From Chloroflexota bacterium (GTDB lineage Bacteria > Chloroflexota > Dehalococcoidia > Bin125): a stretch of DNA of 64,000 nt. Location of the stretch: the NCBI GenBank assembly GCA_026705025.1, contig JAPPBN010000026.1, positions 74,446 to 138,445 on the forward strand, given 5' to 3'. Position 1 is the first letter of the stretch. The number at the start of each line of letters is the position of its first letter. The notes beneath the pieces were generated by a model. It did not search any database. It was not told where the DNA came from and saw nothing but the letters and a program-made list of their open reading frames with translations. Shown in pieces: positions 50,178-63,403 of the stretch. The translations under genes and the position numbers were made by a program.

Positions 50178-50861
50178 ATGCCCAGACCATCACATCTCAC
50201 CACGTGGCCGAGCCTGGCCGAGTTACCGTCCCTCTACCCCGACGCTCGCAACCGGATCAATCGCGGCCCCTACATGTATCGCGCAGGCAAGACGTGGCCG
50301 CTTCCCTCTCGGGTCGACACAGCGAACCGGATCGCAGTCCTCGCAGTCGGCAGCAACGCGTACCCCCGACAATTGTCGGACAAGCTGTCTGGAACGCCGG
50401 CGGATCTGCAGGGAATCCCGACCGTACCGGCGATTCTGTCCGATCTCGATGTGGCCTATTGCCCCGTCCGCTCGCGCAATGGGTACGTCCCGGTCACGTT
50501 GACGTCGCGGCCGGGCGCGGTCTGCCTCACCTGGCTTCAATGGCTCACCCTCGAACAGCTCAACCTGATCTCGTCGACCGAGGGGTCGCGATATGCACTG
50601 GTCGGAGGCTCGTCATTGGCGCAGTCTGCAATCATTCCGGCTCATCTGCGCCGCCCGGCCGCGATCTACGCATGGTGGTTCGACTCCCTGCTGCGCCGCG
50701 ACGGCTTCACCGTCTGGCTGGATGTCTACCGACGAGGAATCGAGCCGGATCTTGATCGGTTGGAGTCGAAGGAAAATGAGCTGCCGAGCGATTGGATCGA
50801 GGTACCCCGGACAGCCGAACATCACGCGATATCACAAGAAATTATGAGCGAAATCTGTTAG
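50178..50861 (+). CDS. hypothetical protein, gamma-glutamylcyclotransferase-like (AIG2-like) fold suspected
   Basis: 227 aa; AVGSNAYPRQL resembles the GGCT YGSN motif. Confidence 0.4.
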   Translation: MPRPSHLTTWPSLAELPSLYPDARNRINRGPYMYRAGKTWPLPSRVDTANRIAVLAVGSNAYPRQLSDKLSGTPADLQGIPTVPAILSDLDVAYCPVRSRNGYVPVTLTSRPGAVCLTWLQWLTLEQLNLISSTEGSRYALVGGSSLAQSAIIPAHLRRPAAIYAWWFDSLLRRDGFTVWLDVYRRGIEPDLDRLESKENELPSDWIEVPRTAEHHAISQEIMSEIC

Positions 50862-53476: not shown

Positions 53477-53857
53477 TTGACGGCATACTCTCGACGTATG
53501 GAATGGGAGGTGGAGTACACCGATGAGTTCGAGCATTGGTGGCTCCAACTCTTGGTTGGTCAGCAGGAAGATGTCGGTATGCGCGTGGAAATGCTGCGTA
53601 GGCAGGGGCCCAACCTTCCGTTTCCGCATTCTTCGAGTATTCGGACATCGCGGCACGGGAGAATGCGCGAACTGAGAGTGCAGAGCGGTGGCAGGCCCAT
53701 CAGGGTGTTCTATGCGTTCGATCCCCGCAGGACCTCGATTCTGTTGATTGGCGGAGACAAGACGGGCAACGACCGATTCTATGAAGAATTCGTACCGTTG
53801 GCTGACAGGCTCTATGACGAGTACCTGATTGAGCTAAGACGGGAAGGACTGATCTGA
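53477..53857 (+). CDS. type II toxin-antitoxin system RelE/ParE-superfamily toxin (HigB/Gp49-like)
   Basis: 126 aa; RELRVQSGGRPIRVFYAFDPRRTSILLIGGDKTGNDRFYEE pattern; stop overlaps the antitoxin start (TGATG). Confidence 0.7.
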   Translation: MTAYSRRMEWEVEYTDEFEHWWLQLLVGQQEDVGMRVEMLRRQGPNLPFPHSSSIRTSRHGRMRELRVQSGGRPIRVFYAFDPRRTSILLIGGDKTGNDRFYEEFVPLADRLYDEYLIELRREGLI

Positions 53858-54195
53858 TGGCTGGCCACCGACCATTCAGTGAGTTGACTCGCGACTGGGA
53901 GCCGGAGCGGCTGGAGCGCGTGAGGGAAGGCGCGGATAAGCTGCTCCGCGAAATGCGGCTGCACGAGTTGCGCCGGGCGCGCGAACTCACCCAGCAGGAC
54001 CTGGCCGAGAGGTTGCAAGTCAATCAGCCTGCCGTAGCCAAGATGGAACAGCGCGCCGATGTCTACGTCTCCAGCTTGCGCCACTACATCGAGGCCGTCG
54101 GGGGTCGACTGAAGGTCGTCGCCGAGTTTCCCGAAGGCGAGGTGGCGATCACCAACTTTTCGGAGGTCGGCCAGGACCCTCCGTCACAGCACTAA
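53857..54195 (+). CDS. XRE-family HTH antitoxin (HigA-like)
   Basis: 112 aa; RRARELTQQDLAERLQVNQPAVAKME HTH_XRE. Confidence 0.7.
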   Translation: MAGHRPFSELTRDWEPERLERVREGADKLLREMRLHELRRARELTQQDLAERLQVNQPAVAKMEQRADVYVSSLRHYIEAVGGRLKVVAEFPEGEVAITNFSEVGQDPPSQH

Positions 54196-56580: not shown

Positions 56581-57471
56581 ATGCCCGACACCGAGACCCT
56601 GTTCCCCGGCTTCCGCGAGCACAGGACGGGCCCAATCTTCGCCCGCGTTGGCGGTTCCGGCTCGCCGTTGTTGCTGCTTCACGGCTATCCGCAGACCGGT
56701 GCCATGTGGCACAAGATTGCGCCCGGCCTGGCCGAGCAGCACACCGTCGTCGTCGCCGATTTGTTGGGCTACGGCGCCAGCGATTCTCCGCCCGGCGACG
56801 GCGGCGGAGAGGCCTATTCGAAGCGGGCCATGGCCGCCTACATGGTCGATCTGATGACCGACCTCGGCTTCGACACCTTCTCGCTCGCCGGGCACGATCG
56901 CGGGGGTCGCGTGTCCTATCGGCTGACCCTGGACCATCCGGAACGGGTCGAACGCCTCTCCCTGCTGGACATCATCCCCACCGCTGAACAGTTTGAGCAG
57001 ATGGGCATCGCCGGCGGCCTGGGCGGATTCCACTGGTACTTCCTCGCCCAGCCCGCGCCCTTGCCTGAGACGCTGATCAACGGCGCGCCCGACTTCTTTC
57101 TTAAGCGGATGCTGGGCTCGTGGGCCGGCCAGGATGACCAAACTGTCTTCACCGAGGCCGCGATGGCCGAGTACCTCGCCGCAGCCAACGACCAGGAAAC
57201 GGTTCGCGGCTGGTGCGAGGACTATCGTTCCGGCGCGCGCTTCGACCTCGCCCTCGACCGCGCCGATCGTTCGGAGGGCAAGAAGATCACTTGCCCGCTG
57301 TTCGTGATCTGGGGCGCCGGACGCCAGCCCAGCCGCCGGGGCCGGTTCATGGCCACCTGGCATCGCTGGGCGACCAATGTCACCGGTGTCGGCCTCCCCT
57401 GCGGTCACTTCCTCCCCGAAGAACTTCCTTACGAAACCGAAGCCGCGCTGAAAGACTTCTTCGCCGACTGA
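56581..57471 (+). CDS. alpha/beta hydrolase, haloacetate dehalogenase / epoxide hydrolase-like
   Basis: 296 aa; HGYPQTGAMW and GHDRGG nucleophile elbow. Confidence 0.75.
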   Translation: MPDTETLFPGFREHRTGPIFARVGGSGSPLLLLHGYPQTGAMWHKIAPGLAEQHTVVVADLLGYGASDSPPGDGGGEAYSKRAMAAYMVDLMTDLGFDTFSLAGHDRGGRVSYRLTLDHPERVERLSLLDIIPTAEQFEQMGIAGGLGGFHWYFLAQPAPLPETLINGAPDFFLKRMLGSWAGQDDQTVFTEAAMAEYLAAANDQETVRGWCEDYRSGARFDLALDRADRSEGKKITCPLFVIWGAGRQPSRRGRFMATWHRWATNVTGVGLPCGHFLPEELPYETEAALKDFFAD

Positions 57472-57525
57472 TTGAGCGCTTGTACGCTCACAGCGAACCG
57501 ATCCAGGCCCTGCAAGGAGCAACAA

Positions 57526-58116
57526 ATGGATCCCGTCACGACATTCAGCGGCACCGGGTTGCCGCTTGACCGCGCCGATGTTGACACCGACCAGATCATC
57601 CCGGCCAAGTACTTGAAGCGAATTGAGCGCACGGGCTATGGTCCCTTCGCCTTTGAGGCCTGGGCCAAGGATCCTGACTTCGTCACGAACCAGCCTCAAT
57701 ACGAAGGCGCCAGCGTGCTGCTCGCCGGACCGAACTTCGGCTGCGGCTCCTCGCGAGAGCATGCCGTCTGGGCGATCCAGGGGATGGGAGTCAAAGCGGT
57801 GATCGCACCCGGCTTCGCCGACATCTTCCGCAACAACTCGGCCAAGATGGGACTGCTCACGATCCAGTTGCCTCAGCCGGACGTGGAGGAACTGATGCGC
57901 CTGGTCGAGTCAGAATCCAACACGCCGATCACGGTCAGCCTCGAAGAACAGACCGTCAGCGCGCCGGGGGGCTGGGTGCGCTCCTTCGATATCGCTCCGT
58001 TCGTCAAGCACTGCCTGCTCAACGGCCTCGACGACATCTCCCTGACGCTGGAGCATGACGACCTGATTTCCGACTACGAGTCGAAGCGACCCACAACGAA
58101 ACCGGTCACTGCCTAG
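57526..58116 (+). CDS. leuD: 3-isopropylmalate dehydratase small subunit
   Basis: Start MDPVTTFSG with AAGGAG SD (longest ORF from 57472); aconitase-swivel LeuD pattern GPNFGCGSSREHA. Confidence 0.85.
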   Translation: MDPVTTFSGTGLPLDRADVDTDQIIPAKYLKRIERTGYGPFAFEAWAKDPDFVTNQPQYEGASVLLAGPNFGCGSSREHAVWAIQGMGVKAVIAPGFADIFRNNSAKMGLLTIQLPQPDVEELMRLVESESNTPITVSLEEQTVSAPGGWVRSFDIAPFVKHCLLNGLDDISLTLEHDDLISDYESKRPTTKPVTA

Positions 58117-58282: not shown

Positions 58283-58441
58283 ATGCCCGAGCATCCACGG
58301 CCAACCATCGGCGACACCATCACCAACCTGCGCCGTTCGATCGGCCGGCGTCACGCCATCTATGGGTTCATCAAGGACAACCTGATCAAGTTGCGGAATG
58401 TTGACAACTGCTGCGGCAACTACGGTGATCCGGGCTGTTGA
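58283..58441 (+). CDS. small Cys-motif peptide 1 (52 aa, ...NCCGNYGDPGC-COOH)
   Basis: MPEHPRPTIGDTITNLRRSIGRRHAIYGFIKDNLIKLRNVDNCCGNYGDPGC; only possible start in frame after an upstream stop; paralog at 58642..58803. Confidence 0.45.
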   Translation: MPEHPRPTIGDTITNLRRSIGRRHAIYGFIKDNLIKLRNVDNCCGNYGDPGC

Positions 58442-58473
58442 GTGTCCGGCGAGCGCGCTCGGGCCGAGTGCAT

Positions 58474-58536
58474 GGAGTCAGATGACCATGACCATCACCA
58501 CGGCCACGATCATGGCCACGGACATGACCATCACTA
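58474..58536 (+). CDS. 21-codon His/Asp-rich ORF (MESDDHDHHHGHDHGHGHDHH)
   Basis: gaccat/cac tandem DNA repeats; weak SD; coding status uncertain. Confidence 0.25.
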
Positions 58537-58641
58537 GTTCAGTAGTCGGCGCTACTGCGGTGAGTGCTGAAGATTGGCCGCGATGAAGGCTCAGAATTCT
58601 CAGACTTCCGCGGTTGAGTAGAAGCGACTGAAAGAGATCCG

Positions 58642-58803
58642 ATGTGTAAGCCCCCGACACCCTCCTTCCGGGACGCGATTGCGAATCTGCGCGCCGATGG
58701 TCGTCAGGGCCTGGGCCTGGTCACCGGCGTGCTCGCCATTTGGTGGAATAGGCTGACGGAGCGACAGACTTGCTGCGGCGACTACGGAGCGCCGGGCTGT
58801 TGA
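58642..58803 (+). CDS. small Cys-motif peptide 2 (53 aa, ...TCCGDYGAPGC-COOH)
   Basis: MCKPPTPSFRDAIANLRADGRQGLGLVTGVLAIWWNRLTERQTCCGDYGAPGC; AAGAGA SD-like motif 6 nt upstream. Confidence 0.45.
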   Translation: MCKPPTPSFRDAIANLRADGRQGLGLVTGVLAIWWNRLTERQTCCGDYGAPGC

Positions 58804-58860
58804 GTCTCCCCCGAACGCGCTCCGGGTGAGCGCCCAACCGACGATTAGGAACCGAGACGT

Positions 58861-59955
58861 ATGGCCCATTTCAGGATTGCGCTTCTGCCCGGTGACGGGA
58901 TTGGCGGCGAAGTCATCGGGCAGGCGATCCGCGTGCTCGATGCCGTGGGCGGCCGATTCGATCACTCCTTTGAGTACAGCGAAGATCTGGTCGGCGGCGC
59001 GTCGATCGACGCGCACGGAGTCGCCCTGCGCGACGAAACGCTGAAGATGTGCCAGGCCCAGGACGCCGTGCTGTTCGGCGCCGTGGGCGGGCCGAAGTGG
59101 GACGATCCGAAAGCCACGGTCCGGCCGGAACAGGCAATCCTTGGCCTGCGCAAGGGACTCGGGTTGTACGCCAACATCCGGCCGGTCAAGATGCTGCCGA
59201 TTCTCGCCGACGCTACACCGCTCAAGCGGGAAACAGTGGAAGCCGTCGATATGGTCGTGCTGCGCGAACTTACCGGAGGCATCTACTTCGGCGAGCCGCA
59301 GCGCCGCTGGGAAGAAGATGGCCAGCGCAAGGCTGTCGACACACTTGCCTACTCCGAGGAGGAAGTCGAGCGGATTGTTCGTCTCGGGTTTGAGACCGCA
59401 CGAGGCCGCCGCGGGCTACTGACTTCCGTCGACAAGGCCAACATTCTCGATACTTCACGCATGTGGCGCGAGATTGCCGACGAAGTCGCGAAGGACTACC
59501 CCGACGTCACGCTCGAACACCGACTCGTTGACGCTTGCGCGATGGACCTGATTCGACACCCGTCCTACTTCGACGTGATCGTGACCGAGAACATGTTCGG
59601 CGACATCCTCACGGATGAAGCCTCAATGCTGGCCGGTTCGATGGGCATGTTGCCTTCCGCCTCTCTGGGCGCTTCCGAGGACGGCTCGACGCTGGGTCTG
59701 TACGAGCCGATTCATGGCACCGCGCCCGACATCGCCGGCCAGGGCATCGCCAATCCGATGGCGATGATTCTGAGCGCGGCGCTGATGCTGCGTTACTCGC
59801 TGGGTCTTGAACAGGAAGCAAGCGCCATCGAAGACGCCGTCACCCACACGCTCGCCGCCGGTCATCGTTCAGCCGATCTCGCTGGCGAGGGTGACGAACC
59901 ACTCGGTACCGAAGCGCTCGGGAATCTGATCACCCAAGCAGTCACCGGCAGCTGA
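58861..59955 (+). CDS. leuB: 3-isopropylmalate dehydrogenase
   Basis: 364 aa; AGGAA SD; IALLPGDGIG, NMFGDILTDE motifs. Confidence 0.92.
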   Translation: MAHFRIALLPGDGIGGEVIGQAIRVLDAVGGRFDHSFEYSEDLVGGASIDAHGVALRDETLKMCQAQDAVLFGAVGGPKWDDPKATVRPEQAILGLRKGLGLYANIRPVKMLPILADATPLKRETVEAVDMVVLRELTGGIYFGEPQRRWEEDGQRKAVDTLAYSEEEVERIVRLGFETARGRRGLLTSVDKANILDTSRMWREIADEVAKDYPDVTLEHRLVDACAMDLIRHPSYFDVIVTENMFGDILTDEASMLAGSMGMLPSASLGASEDGSTLGLYEPIHGTAPDIAGQGIANPMAMILSAALMLRYSLGLEQEASAIEDAVTHTLAAGHRSADLAGEGDEPLGTEALGNLITQAVTGS

Positions 59956-60004: not shown

Positions 60005-63000
60005 ATGCCCATTCAACGCCTTCTCGTCGCCAACCGTGGTGAAATCGCCGTCCGCATCTTGCGCACCGCTACTGAGCTGGGAATTGCCACCGCCGCAGTG
60101 CATTCCTCCGACGATGCCGCCTCTGACCACATTCAGCATGCAGAGACGGTCATTGAGCTCTCCGGAATCGGACCCGCAGCCTACCTCGACATAGACCAGA
60201 TCGTTGATCGCGCCAAAGAGCACGACTGCGATGCGATCCATCCCGGCTACGGCTTCCTGGCCGAGAACGCCGACTTTGCCCGCGCCTGCGAAGAGGCAGG
60301 CATCACCTTTGTTGGACCCTCGCCGGCTGCGCTGGCGCTGTTCGGGGACAAGGCTCGCGCACGCACACTGGCGGGGGCGCGCAGCGTCCCCGTCCTCACG
60401 GGTACGGACCACGCGGTCGACCTTGATGGTGCGCGCGCCTTCTTCGAGCAGCTCGACGGCCGCCCGATGGTGATCAAGGCAATCGGAGGCGGTGGCGGAC
60501 GCGGGATGAGAGCGATCAGTGAGGCCGCCGAGATTGAGGATGCGTTCGAGCGCTGTACGCGTGAGGCTCAGGCGGCCTTCGGCAATGGCGCATTGTTCGT
60601 CGAGCGGTTTATTCCTCGAGCGCGACACATCGAAGTCCAGATCGTGGGTGACCAGCACGGCCATGTCACACACGTGGGCGAACGAGAATGCACAATTCAG
60701 CGTCGTTATCAGAAGCTGATCGAAATCGCGCCGTCGCCAACGCTCAGCGACAGTCTTCGCGAGCGAATCACGGCCGCCGCGGTCGAGTTGGCCGAGGCCG
60801 GAGGCTACTCCAATCTGGGCACATTCGAGTTCCTGGTTGACGCCGACACCGGTGACGACTTCGCCTTCATCGAGGCCAATGCTCGTCTGCAGGTTGAACA
60901 CACCGTGACCGAGGAAGTGGCGGGGCTCGACCTGGTCGAGTGCCAGTTGCGGATCGCCGAAGGCGCGACGCTCATCGATCTCGGCATGGAATCGCCGCCG
61001 CCACTTCGAGGGTTTGCGATTCAGTCGCGAGTCAATCTCGAGCGGATGCGTGAGGACGGCGATGTCCGTCCAGCCGCCGGCGCGCTGCGCACCTTCCGTC
61101 CGCCGGCCGGACCTGGCGTCCGTGTCGACACGTACGGCTATGCCGGATATGCGGCCAATCCGAACTTTGACTCGTTGATCGCCAAGGTCGTCACCCGGCA
61201 TCCCAGCAGCGAATTCAAGGACGCCGTGCGCCGTGCCCAGCGCGCGCTGGACGAGTTCCAGCTCGAGGGTCCCGATTCGAACATTGGCTTCTTGCGCAAC
61301 ATCCTTGGACACCCCGAGTTCGTCGCCGGCGATGTCCACACCCGCTGGATCGACGAGCGAATCGGCGAGTTGGCGGTCACCTCTGACAACGGAGCATCCT
61401 CCGGAGGTCAGTCGGCCTGGGCCGGAGCCCAGGTGGAGAACCAGGTCACCGATCCGCTCGCCGCACTTGACTTTTTCCGCCAGGGCGCCGGCGCCGCATC
61501 GCTCGATGTCAACCGTGGACTTGAGGAAGAACGCGCCGGTTTCCCCGCGCCCGAAATCATCGGCCCGCCGGGCACGGAACCGCTGCGCGCTCCGATCCAG
61601 GGCACGATCATCGAGATTCTTGTCGGCGAGGGCGACTCAGTCGTCGCCGGCCAGGACGTGATCATCATGAATGCGATGAAGATGGAGCACGTGCTCCAGG
61701 CAGACATCGGCGGCATCGCGCAGGAAATCACCGTATCGATCGGCGACATCATCTGGGAAGGCCACCCGCTCGTATTCATCGAGCCGGCCGACGTCGGCCC
61801 AGCTCTGGATGACGGCGCCGGTGAAATCGACCTTGACTACATCCGACCCGACCTGCAGCACAACATCGACTTGCACGAGGCCCTGCTCGACCACCATCGC
61901 GAGGGGCCGGTCGCCAGACGGCACGCCAAGGGCAAGCGCACCGCCCGCGAGAACATTGCCCAGCTTGTCGAGGGCGGCGCCTGGACCGAATACATGCCGC
62001 TCGGCGTCGCTGCGCAACGTCGCGTGCGATCGTGGGAAGAGTTGCGCCGTGTTTCGCCGGCCGACGGCCTGATCTGCGGGATCGGAACGGTCAACGCCGA
62101 ATTGTTTGACAACTCCACGGCCTCGACCGCGATCATCTCCTACGACGAGACCGTTTGGGCCGGGACGCAGGGGCTGCGCGGCCATGAGAAGACCGATCGC
62201 ATGGTCGAGACCGCGCACCGGCTGCTCACGCCGCTGGTGTTCATTGCCGAAGGCGCCGGCGGGCGTTCGGGCGACACCGATGCGGCGTACACGCGCGTCG
62301 CGGCCCGCAACGTGCGCACCTTCGAGCGCCTGGCCGAACTCTCGGGCCGCGTGCCGATGGTCTCGATCACCGCCGGACGCTGCTTTGCCGGCAATGCCTC
62401 GATGCTGGGTATGTGCGACATCATCGTCGCGACCGAAGGATCCAACATCGCCATGGGCGGACCCGCAGTCATCGAAGGCGGTGGCCTTGGCCTCTTCCTG
62501 CCCGAGGAACTCGGGCCGATGTCGCAACAGGTACCCAACGGCGTCGTCGACATCTTCGTCAAGGACGAAGATGAAGCGATGGCCGCAGTGAAGAAATACC
62601 TCTCCTACTTCCAGGGTCGGCTCACGGAATGGAGCGCCCCCGATCAGCGCCAACTGCGCCACGTGATTCCTGAGAACCGGCTGCGCACCTACGACGTGCG
62701 CAAGGTCATCGACCTGCTGGCTGACCACGACTCGGTGTTGGAACTGCGACCCGAGTTCGGCATCGGCGTCGTGACGGCACTGATTCGCATCGAAGGCCGT
62801 CCCGTGGGCGTGATCGCGAACAACAATATGCACATCGGCGGCGCGGTCGACAGCGACGGCTCGGACAAGCTGGCTCGCTTCGCCCAGATCTGCGACTGCT
62901 GGAACATCCCTCTCCTCACGCTGGTCGATACGCCGGGCATGATGGTCGGTCCCGAGGTCGAGAAGACGGCGCTGGTCCGCCACTGCCACCGGGTCTTCGT

Positions 63001-63403
63001 CTCGCTGGCCAACCTGACCACGCCGAAGATGACGATCACGCTGCGCAAGTGCTACGGACTCGGCGGACTGGCGATGCTCGCTGGCAGCACCGAGGCCGGA
63101 CTCTTCAATGTCGGTTGGCCAACGTCTGAGTATGGCGGGATGAACCTTGAGGCTGGGGTCAAACTCGGAGCGAGGGCGCAGCTCGAGAAGATCGAAGACC
63201 TCGAGGAACGCACCCGGGTCTATGAGGAAATGGTCGCCGATGCCTACGAACGCGGCAACGCCGTCAACGCCGCCACGGTGCTGGAGTCGGACGACGTGAT
63301 CGACCCGGCCGAGACCCGTCAGTGGATCCTGCGTTTGCTCGACGCCGTGCCGAACTCCGAACCGATCCGCGAAGGTCGCCGCCCGTATATCGACAGCTGG
63401 TAG
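60005..63403 (+). CDS. single-chain biotin-dependent acyl-CoA carboxylase (BC-BCCP-CT fusion)
   Basis: 1132 aa. N-terminal biotin carboxylase ATP-grasp, central biotinyl domain with the AMKM motif (IMNAMKMEH), C-terminal ~510-aa carboxyltransferase domain of the PccB/AccD type. Confidence 0.85.
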   Translation: MPIQRLLVANRGEIAVRILRTATELGIATAAVHSSDDAASDHIQHAETVIELSGIGPAAYLDIDQIVDRAKEHDCDAIHPGYGFLAENADFARACEEAGITFVGPSPAALALFGDKARARTLAGARSVPVLTGTDHAVDLDGARAFFEQLDGRPMVIKAIGGGGGRGMRAISEAAEIEDAFERCTREAQAAFGNGALFVERFIPRARHIEVQIVGDQHGHVTHVGERECTIQRRYQKLIEIAPSPTLSDSLRERITAAAVELAEAGGYSNLGTFEFLVDADTGDDFAFIEANARLQVEHTVTEEVAGLDLVECQLRIAEGATLIDLGMESPPPLRGFAIQSRVNLERMREDGDVRPAAGALRTFRPPAGPGVRVDTYGYAGYAANPNFDSLIAKVVTRHPSSEFKDAVRRAQRALDEFQLEGPDSNIGFLRNILGHPEFVAGDVHTRWIDERIGELAVTSDNGASSGGQSAWAGAQVENQVTDPLAALDFFRQGAGAASLDVNRGLEEERAGFPAPEIIGPPGTEPLRAPIQGTIIEILVGEGDSVVAGQDVIIMNAMKMEHVLQADIGGIAQEITVSIGDIIWEGHPLVFIEPADVGPALDDGAGEIDLDYIRPDLQHNIDLHEALLDHHREGPVARRHAKGKRTARENIAQLVEGGAWTEYMPLGVAAQRRVRSWEELRRVSPADGLICGIGTVNAELFDNSTASTAIISYDETVWAGTQGLRGHEKTDRMVETAHRLLTPLVFIAEGAGGRSGDTDAAYTRVAARNVRTFERLAELSGRVPMVSITAGRCFAGNASMLGMCDIIVATEGSNIAMGGPAVIEGGGLGLFLPEELGPMSQQVPNGVVDIFVKDEDEAMAAVKKYLSYFQGRLTEWSAPDQRQLRHVIPENRLRTYDVRKVIDLLADHDSVLELRPEFGIGVVTALIRIEGRPVGVIANNNMHIGGAVDSDGSDKLARFAQICDCWNIPLLTLVDTPGMMVGPEVEKTALVRHCHRVFVSLANLTTPKMTITLRKCYGLGGLAMLAGSTEAGLFNVGWPTSEYGGMNLEAGVKLGARAQLEKIEDLEERTRVYEEMVADAYERGNAVNAATVLESDDVIDPAETRQWILRLLDAVPNSEPIREGRRPYIDSW

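Follow-up and report, generated by a model that had tools for sequence, protein, structure and literature searches.

Two small genes between leuD and leuB

We analysed a 64,000-nucleotide stretch of DNA from a Chloroflexota bacterium (assembly GCA_026705025.1, contig JAPPBN010000026.1, positions 74,446 to 138,445), hereafter called the window. Between leuD and leuB it contains two small open reading frames (ORFs) on the + strand, 58283-58441 (52 aa) and 58642-58803 (53 aa), both of which run to a TGA codon and end in CCGxYGxPGC. Their products are 37% identical (BLASTP, E=1e-9). A first-pass annotation made from the sequence alone had described these ORFs and their shared ends, had taken them for paralogues and had named the flanking genes leuD and leuB, all of which our searches bore out; it was also correct that no leuC precedes leuD in the window and that no radical SAM (rSAM), YcaO, DUF692 or LanM gene lies near the ORFs. 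Where it has each peptide terminate exactly at the last Cys, it is probably mistaken: this residue is followed by a conserved TGA and then by a hairpin resembling a selenocysteine insertion sequence (SECIS), and coding appears to continue beyond the TGA.

We propose, with a probability of roughly 0.8, that the two ORFs are paralogous genes of a family of small selenoproteins, cut by gene callers at an in-frame UGA (Table 1). Reading both TGA codons as selenocysteine (Sec, U) places the true 3' ends at 58537 and 58848. Gene 1 then continues in frame into the His-rich mini-ORF that lies between it and gene 2. In a Chloroflexota metagenome-assembled genome (MAG) from a sponge metagenome that matches the window (GCA_028875585.1), the genes are annotated as 52- and 53-aa hypothetical proteins.

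Table 1. Proposed gene models and flanking genes (window coordinates).
Feature	Position	Strand	Description
Small selenoprotein gene 1 (proposed)	58283..58537	+	52 aa + Sec + 30-aa tail = 83 aa; Sec would be residue 53; stop TAG 58535-58537; 84 sense codons listed, UGA counted; C-terminal part after extension ...CCGNYGDPGC-U-VSGERARAECMESDDHDHHHGHDHGHGHDHH
Proposed Sec codon, gene 1	58439..58441	+	in-frame TGA directly 3' of ...PGC
SECIS-like hairpin 1	58455..58471	+	GCGCUCG-GGC-CGAGUGC; start 13 nt past UGA (hairpin scan)
His-rich C-terminal tail, gene 1	58481..58534	+	DDHDHHHGHDHGHGHDHH; in frame with gene 1
Small selenoprotein gene 2 (proposed)	58642..58848	+	53 aa + Sec + 14-aa tail (VSPERAPGERPTDD) = 68 aa; Sec would be residue 54; stop TAG 58846-58848; leuB ATG 12 nt further on
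Proposed Sec codon, gene 2	58801..58803	+	in-frame TGA
SECIS-like hairpin 2	58817..58833	+	GCGCUC-CGGGU-GAGCGC; start 13 nt past UGA (hairpin scan)
leuD, 3-isopropylmalate dehydratase small subunit	57526..58116	+	NCBIfam NF002458/TIGR00171, above curated cut-off
leuB, 3-isopropylmalate dehydrogenase	58861..59955	+	TIGR00169, above curated cut-off; syntenic in relatives

A family of small proteins in two phyla

The first-pass annotation had suggested looking for the pair in related genomes and for homologues that keep the C-terminal motif. Queried with either peptide, word-indexed searches recovered close relatives in Chloroflexota and nothing else; in these MAGs both paralogue types are conserved at the leuD-...-leuB position. 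An exhaustive profile search of 1.84 billion representatives yielded 82 clusters at 50% identity, nearly all of them proteins of 46-80 aa with the match running to the C-terminus. A word-indexed profile search of a 5.8-billion-sequence set gave 929 clusters at 90% identity, all unnamed or "hypothetical" and none with a Pfam domain. When one genome per GTDB species was scanned with the pattern CCG[NHR]xG[EQD]PGC, which demands no stop codon, at least 509 species genomes were confirmed among the 600 pattern matches listed. We kept 80 species loci: 39 from Chloroflexota (spanning Dehalococcoidia, Tepidiformaceae, Anaerolineae, Chloroflexia, Thermoflexus and Caldilineae), 35 from Actinomycetota (mostly Acidimicrobiia and Thermoleophilia) and 6 of unclear binning. 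A locus usually carries one copy of the gene.

The family consensus is M..(R)PSxRxxxxN[WL]Rxx(D)xPFxxKLRLxxRNNWxKxRTRxxCCGNxGEPGC, and about 15-17 of the 80 members start with Met-Cys. The C-terminal motif is the most conserved part and is nearly invariant across the two phyla. Searches of Pfam and NCBIfam (release 20, June 2026) with eight diverse members, in truncated form and as full-length proteins with U replaced by C, returned only low-complexity His matches, and a PDB profile search returned no match to the family; the first-pass annotation, too, had been unable to place the terminus in a family. The HdrB-type CCG domain had rightly been set aside: PF02754 gave no Pfam match at E<=10, and this domain is longer than the 11-residue motif. 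Neither form of the members matched the models for SaoC (NF040734), KCU-star (NF033934) or MbdU (NF045648).

Literature searches by sequence string and motif found no description of the family, and Table 1 of PMC13188914 (2026; 119 prokaryotic selenoprotein families) holds no entry with its motif or properties. An uncharacterised 78-aa selenoprotein predicted by deep-Sep is the commonest one in Actinomarina (Acidimicrobiia) (bioRxiv 10.64898/2026.04.03.716425). It might belong to the family described here, no sequence being given with the prediction. Unless the two overlap, the small proteins probably constitute a new selenoprotein family that is widespread and mis-annotated.

The motif is invariably followed by TGA

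We next compared the codon after PGC in 84 genes, comprising the two in the window, both copies in the relative L001 and those of the 80 species loci. It was TGA in 84/84. Other genes in the same loci use TGA as stop in 365 of 812 cases (45%), so that 84/84 would arise by chance with a probability of ~7e-30, shared ancestry not being taken into account. Under the standard code, which all public annotations apply, this UGA would be an ordinary stop; the products would then be unmodified thiol peptides of 52 and 53 aa for metal or redox chemistry, ending in Cys, and the hairpin would be a transcript-stabilising or terminator-like element. TGA is indeed the commonest stop in these GC-rich genomes, but the 45% background contrasts with its universal use at this position.

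A SECIS-like hairpin lies downstream of the TGA

A GC-rich stem of 4-9 bp was found by hairpin scan in every member, with at least 5 bp in 81/84. The stem starts 9-16 nt past the TGA (11-13 nt in 60/84), and the loop contains GU in 72/84, typically as CG-GUN-CG or C-CGUGA-G. A stem of at least 5 bp, a spacer of 9-16 nt and a GU in the loop occurred jointly at 71/84 family sites, compared with 21/359 control TGA stops. The spacing fixed at 11-13 nt and the lack of a U-tract speak against a terminator-like element, and a promoter and terminator scan of the region found no sites.

A covariance model (R1) was built from 19 sites of the same geometry and used to search about 1 Mb of loci, resulting in a 60-row alignment. 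The model recovers about 50 family sites; two extra matches were attributed to chance. Standard pairs fill 99.1% of the cells in the alignment. Changes on both sides occurred at 4/6 pairs, in 61 cells versus 15.5 ± 2.9 after shuffling, and 0/500 shuffles reached 61. Sliding the 3' partner as a control lowered pairing to <=54%. Rfam, in which coverage of bacterial SECIS elements is poor, gave only a sub-threshold CRISPR-DR match, which we took as noise.

According to Haft and Gwadz, a bacterial SECIS is expected to have a 7-bp stem and a G-containing GGU loop (bioRxiv 10.1101/2022.07.06.499078), and the geometry and loop of the family hairpin match this description. In the clade of the window the hairpin (GCGCUC-N3-5-GAGCGC) is invariant among orthologues at the right spacing, with a G-U to G-C change in hairpin 1. 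Hairpin 1 is also present in the minimum-free-energy fold. One of the two chance matches of R1 is a palindrome at the GYSEPGSGSD motif of an acyl-CoA dehydrogenase in locus L014 (3874-3908, - strand; GAGCCCGGTTCGGGGTC), which mimics the family hairpin; it is preceded by TGT, not TGA.

The reading frame continues beyond the TGA

In-frame tails extend 1-61 codons beyond the TGA in the 84 genes. His accounts for 14.1% of tail residues, compared with 2.8% past control TGA stops and 2.3-2.6% when the tail DNA is read in either of its other frames, and 37/84 tails contain at least three His. Such His-rich tails are found in 27/35 Actinomycetota and 5/39 Chloroflexota, and 5 Actinomycetota members have a His-rich N-terminus.

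The tails of the window's clade were compared in six distinct orthologue sets (window, L001, L002, L095, L098 and L100). In the four spacer codons past the UGA only synonymous changes were seen (GTG/GTC/GTT; TCC/TCT/TCG; GGC/GGA/GGT or CCC/CCT/CCA; GAG/GAA). In all six sets the gene-2 tail has 14 codons and is followed by TAG. Its variable sites are distributed 8:3:1 over codon positions 3:2:1, resembling the upstream coding region (24:7:11), while directly past the TAG nearly every column is variable, indels blurring this control. The gene-1 orthologue in L098 has a similar His-rich tail. Only 1-2 codons follow the TGA in five members (L036, L059, L045, L069 and L072), as would also be compatible with an ordinary stop; since these members have 1-2 residues past U, the tail appears dispensable and the functional unit would end at the CU pair.

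Four of the 82 representative clusters (P0023, P0076, P0087 and P0030) run past PGC with a Cys and a His-containing tail: PGC-C-IDGKRCQIDRGHTH, PGC-C-IATEDCSIDFENGEHSH, PGC-C-EGSSAKGHHHGEEEDVEK and PGC-C-VTTEH.... The DNA of P0076 and P0023 (L093, L094) has TGC at this codon and no GC-rich hairpin, and folding there is weaker than in shuffles. Both genes adjoin uppS, as do several UGA-forms of Acidimicrobiia. No residue other than Cys was seen at the UGA position in homologues.

An ordinary stop is difficult to reconcile with substitutions past the TGA that are synonymous only, with conserved tail lengths, with a His enrichment confined to one frame and with homologues that have TGC and a tail at exactly the UGA position. 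We therefore consider it very unlikely. The earlier suggestion of an unmodified thiol metal or redox peptide pointed in the right direction, although the proteins probably do not end at Cys and the motif would be CCGxxGxPGC-U.

Proposed decoding of the UGA as selenocysteine

The universal TGA, the hairpin, the translated tail and the Cys-forms together argue that the TGA is a Sec codon. Criteria for calling new selenoprotein families have been set out (bioRxiv 10.1101/2022.07.06.499078), and the family displays four of the five features used in the field for high-confidence prediction: every member has the TGA, a SECIS-like hairpin follows it, homology extends through the U position, and homologues with Cys exist. 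The fifth feature is Sec machinery in the same genome. For gene 1 and gene 2 themselves the case consists of the conserved TGA, a hairpin that is invariant and correctly spaced, tails with a coding signature and homology to the wider family. On these sequence features, the two products very probably contain Sec. SelB and Sec-tRNA(Sec) would recognise the short GC-rich hairpin 11-13 nt past the UGA, leading to Sec insertion.

Several observations weigh against this reading. The single-sequence minimum-free-energy fold of hairpin 2 favours another structure, leaving comparative support for this hairpin. The loops of the two window hairpins, GGC and CGGGU, depart from the family consensus, and both hairpins were missed by model R1. 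They fold no better than shuffles (z = +0.58 and +0.09); such unexceptional stability would suit an ordinary stop, although single-sequence folding z-scores are non-discriminating in these GC-rich 42-mers. The covariation alignment was fitted to the model, so its counts lean towards structure, and because hairpin and coding sequence overlap, some of the hairpin's conservation could stem from the protein. Finally, neither the window nor 1.06 Mb of loci, which cover ~0.5% of each genome, yielded selA, selB, selD or tRNA-Sec (tblastn with E. coli SelA, SelB and SelD; ARAGORN).

According to the literature, Sec decoders exist in both Chloroflexota and Actinomycetota. The ten bacteria richest in selenoproteins in BSepDB include Dehalococcoidia MAGs (PMC13326102), and selA, selB, selC and selD are present in all 84 complete Actinomarina genomes (bioRxiv 10.64898/2026.04.03.716425). 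A scan of the window for further genes with a UGA and a hairpin gave none that was convincing, with filters that also missed gene 1 and gene 2.

The loops without the GU of the family consensus and the lack of Sec machinery in the loci covered would also fit readthrough without Sec, by near-cognate insertion of Trp, Cys or Arg stimulated by the hairpin, or a loss of Sec decoding in the window's clade that leaves the product mostly truncated. We regard this as most unlikely, considering that Cys alone replaces the UGA position in homologues, that the hairpin geometry fits bacterial SECIS elements, and that the clade has kept the TGA, the hairpin and the coding constraint on the tail in all paralogues.

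Gene neighbourhood and the link to leuD

In 18/80 loci, all of them Chloroflexota (18/39), leuD lies directly upstream on the same strand, usually preceded by leuC. The position in the window, which the first-pass annotation had called odd, was thus informative. The ATG of the small gene overlaps the leuD stop by 4 nt (ATGA) in 10 of the 18 loci and by 1 nt in 2 more, with a median intergenic distance of -4. An ATGA overlap of stop and start is usually read as a sign of translational coupling, and in Chloroflexota the small gene would by this token be coupled to leuD. In two Acidimicrobiia loci leuCD lies convergently within about 0.6 kb.

In the window's own clade the coupling is loosened. 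There leuD is preceded by an alpha/beta hydrolase gene rather than leuC (window 56581-58116). Close relatives (L095-L104; e.g. L095 2296-2937 and L103 8553-9869) carry, between leuD and the small genes, one or two genes for Uma2-family endonucleases; the small genes are present in 1-3 copies.

The immediate neighbours (79 upstream and 78 downstream loci) comprise 80 upstream and 68 downstream Pfam families. In this census no RiPP (ribosomally synthesised and post-translationally modified peptide) maturase (rSAM, YcaO, LanM, MNIO or DUF692) and no peptidase partner recurred. ArsP-type permeases were 2 of 78 downstream neighbours, and genes for metal transport or resistance are not recurrent. 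Outside the leu context, ten downstream neighbours on the same strand were identified with NCBIfam; they included transketolase halves, UppS, PurU, SurE and a ferritin-like protein and shared no theme. Among these ten, a metal-related immediate neighbour was seen only in the Dehalococcoidia locus L083 (819-1823), where the small gene overlaps the start of a ferritin-like/encapsulin-cargo (EncB-family) gene.

The first-pass annotation had considered a RiPP precursor pair, with a conserved leader, a Cys-rich core and maturation enzymes encoded elsewhere, and had suggested a comparison with precursor models. Small size, duplication and a Cys-rich C-terminus are in keeping with such precursors, as are the 1-3 copies in close relatives. 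However, no NCBIfam or Pfam RiPP precursor model matched (E<=10), the 80 loci lack a recurrent maturase or peptidase and usually contain one copy, and the supposed core, rather than being variable, is conserved more strongly than any other part of the protein and is nearly invariant across two phyla. Translational coupling to the housekeeping gene leuD likewise argues against a RiPP precursor, which we find hardly credible. Where a C-terminal motif appears to "end exactly at a stop", UGA recoding should be checked first, before a RiPP core is assumed.

Elsewhere in the window, a single 1132-aa ORF fusing biotin carboxylase, a biotin carrier domain and carboxyltransferase (60005-63403) lies directly 3' of leuB in all relatives. 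Two other ORFs are syntenic in all relatives: a conserved 227-aa ORF without a Pfam or NCBIfam family (50178-50861) and a 249-aa acetoacetate-decarboxylase-like ORF (PF06314; 55775-56524) without an NCBIfam match. Between gyrA and a luciferase-like monooxygenase gene the window has a Gp49/HigB-like gene and an HTH_37 antitoxin-like gene (53477-54195). The relatives L001 and L002 carry an HSDR_N-type gene at the Gp49/HigB-like spot, which is thus variable.

Protein anatomy and proposed function

The N-terminal ~50 residues are basic (median isoelectric point 9.7, net charge +5), and the tail is acidic (median net charge -2). The invariant arm C-C-G-x-x-G-x-P-G-C-U would place three thiols and one selenol within 11 residues. 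The mature proteins of the window (83 and 68 aa) would consist of a basic one-helix N-terminal region, this arm and a short acidic tail, His-rich in gene 1.

The CC...CU arm may act as a flexible metal-binding or dithiol/selenolthiol redox arm, with the His-rich tails as metal-capturing extensions. The CU dipeptide is rare and has been linked to heavy-metal chemistry by Haft and Gwadz (bioRxiv 10.1101/2022.07.06.499078). His-rich extensions at either end, beside the Cys3Sec cluster, suggest metal capture. Metal binding as the primary role of the arm is possible, and we put it forward tentatively.

The main alternative to metal capture is a TrxR-like redox relay, in which Sec is incorporated and the arm works as a pure thiol/selenol oxidoreductase without physiological metal binding or a tie to LeuCD. 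Most prokaryotic selenoproteins are redox proteins (PMC13188914). Chloroflexota members are mostly without His tails, and outside Chloroflexota the neighbourhoods show no relation to leu genes. Also in favour of a redox role, vicinal CC and CU pairs are able to close into eight-membered rings (disulfide or selenenylsulfide), as does the GCUG of TrxR. Set against this are His-rich extensions at either terminus in 32/35 Actinomycetota, the further Cys and His gained by the Cys-forms, and the ATGA overlap with leuD in 10 loci. On balance, we hold a purely redox arm to be somewhat unlikely.

LeuCD is a [4Fe-4S] dehydratase. Its exposed cluster is reportedly among those most readily attacked by Cu(I), Ag(I), Hg(II), Cd(II) and oxidants, as Macomber and Imlay in 2009 and Xu and Imlay in 2012 are said to have found. 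For this reason a Cys3Sec arm that buffers metals or services the cluster is an attractive hypothesis: in Chloroflexota the protein would be co-produced with LeuCD and guard or service the solvent-exposed [4Fe-4S] cluster against thiophilic metals or oxidants. A role tied specifically to LeuCD is unlikely. Carried further, an almost obligately Sec-containing micro-protein would be a third, translationally coupled product of leuCD in Chloroflexota, whose Cys3Sec arm protects or repairs the isopropylmalate isomerase [4Fe-4S] cluster or buffers thiophilic metals; we rate this speculation as decidedly unlikely.

Three points count against the functional part of the proposal. AlphaFold2, run with 12 and with 126 sequences, predicted in both cases one long helix (residues 9-41) followed by an unstructured C-terminal motif at a pLDDT (predicted local distance difference test) of ~62, and with this low value the function gets no support from structure. 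The gap of 166 nt between leuD and gene 1 means that the window gene is not coupled to leuD. Outside Chloroflexota, the diverse housekeeping neighbours give the functional reading weak context support.

If the Sec reading is true, a selenoprotein that every pipeline truncates to a "hypothetical protein, ~52 aa" is encoded in no fewer than 509 species genomes and represented by no fewer than 929 protein clusters. It would add to the prokaryotic selenoproteome a family that is very small, has the rare CU motif and often a His-rich tail, and nearly always uses Sec rather than Cys, which is unusual. Through the leuD coupling in Chloroflexota, it would also connect selenium use to a central Fe-S enzyme in a testable manner. 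Should the LeuCD link hold, a core enzyme of amino-acid biosynthesis would have an accessory factor that depends on selenium, and the family could be a major reason why many Chloroflexota and Acidimicrobiia retain the Sec machinery.

Comparison with known systems

KCU-star/DUF466 (NF033934) and SaoC (NF040734) resemble the family in being small and in having database entries cut short at a CU that lies at the C-terminus or close to it. They likewise have a SECIS stem-loop 3' of the UGA, sometimes past the true stop, and Cys-Cys forms in other species (bioRxiv 10.1101/2022.07.06.499078; PMC13188914). In contrast, there is no sequence similarity to the family and no NCBIfam match at E<=10. SaoC is a secreted or lipoprotein component (~158 aa) of a nine-gene system, whereas the family members look cytoplasmic, have no signal peptide, are basic and are solitary or follow leuD. 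The family also differs from both in its extra CC pair (CCGxxGxPGCU), its often His-rich tail and in Sec being the rule (84/84; Cys-forms in 4/82 clusters). In MbdU (NF045648) and the Sec-containing MerT/HMA/CopZ-like proteins, CU is proposed to bind soft metals; these have no homology to the family.

PqqA and MftA share with the truncated products a length of roughly 50 aa and a conserved C-terminal motif. They are, however, always clustered with maturases and end at a genuine stop, whereas the family has no maturase and has a conserved UGA with a SECIS-like hairpin.

UreE, HypB, SlyD and Hpn are metallochaperones with His-rich tails. Like the family, they have low-complexity HxHxH tails at either terminus that vary between lineages, a likeness of composition only, and the family also shows a weak compositional match to the His stretch of ZrgA. 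Unlike for these metallochaperones, no Ni or urease/hydrogenase genes lie near the family genes, and the tails are missing in most Chloroflexota members.

The C-terminal -GCUG arm of mammalian TrxR shuttles electrons, and the -CC arm of MerA shuttles Hg(II). By analogy, the family arm would likewise present a vicinal Cys-Sec or Cys-Cys pair on a flexible C-terminal extension after Gly. The arms of TrxR and MerA sit on large flavoenzymes, whereas that of the family sits on a helix of ~40 residues without a catalytic domain, so that its partner would have to be a separate protein.

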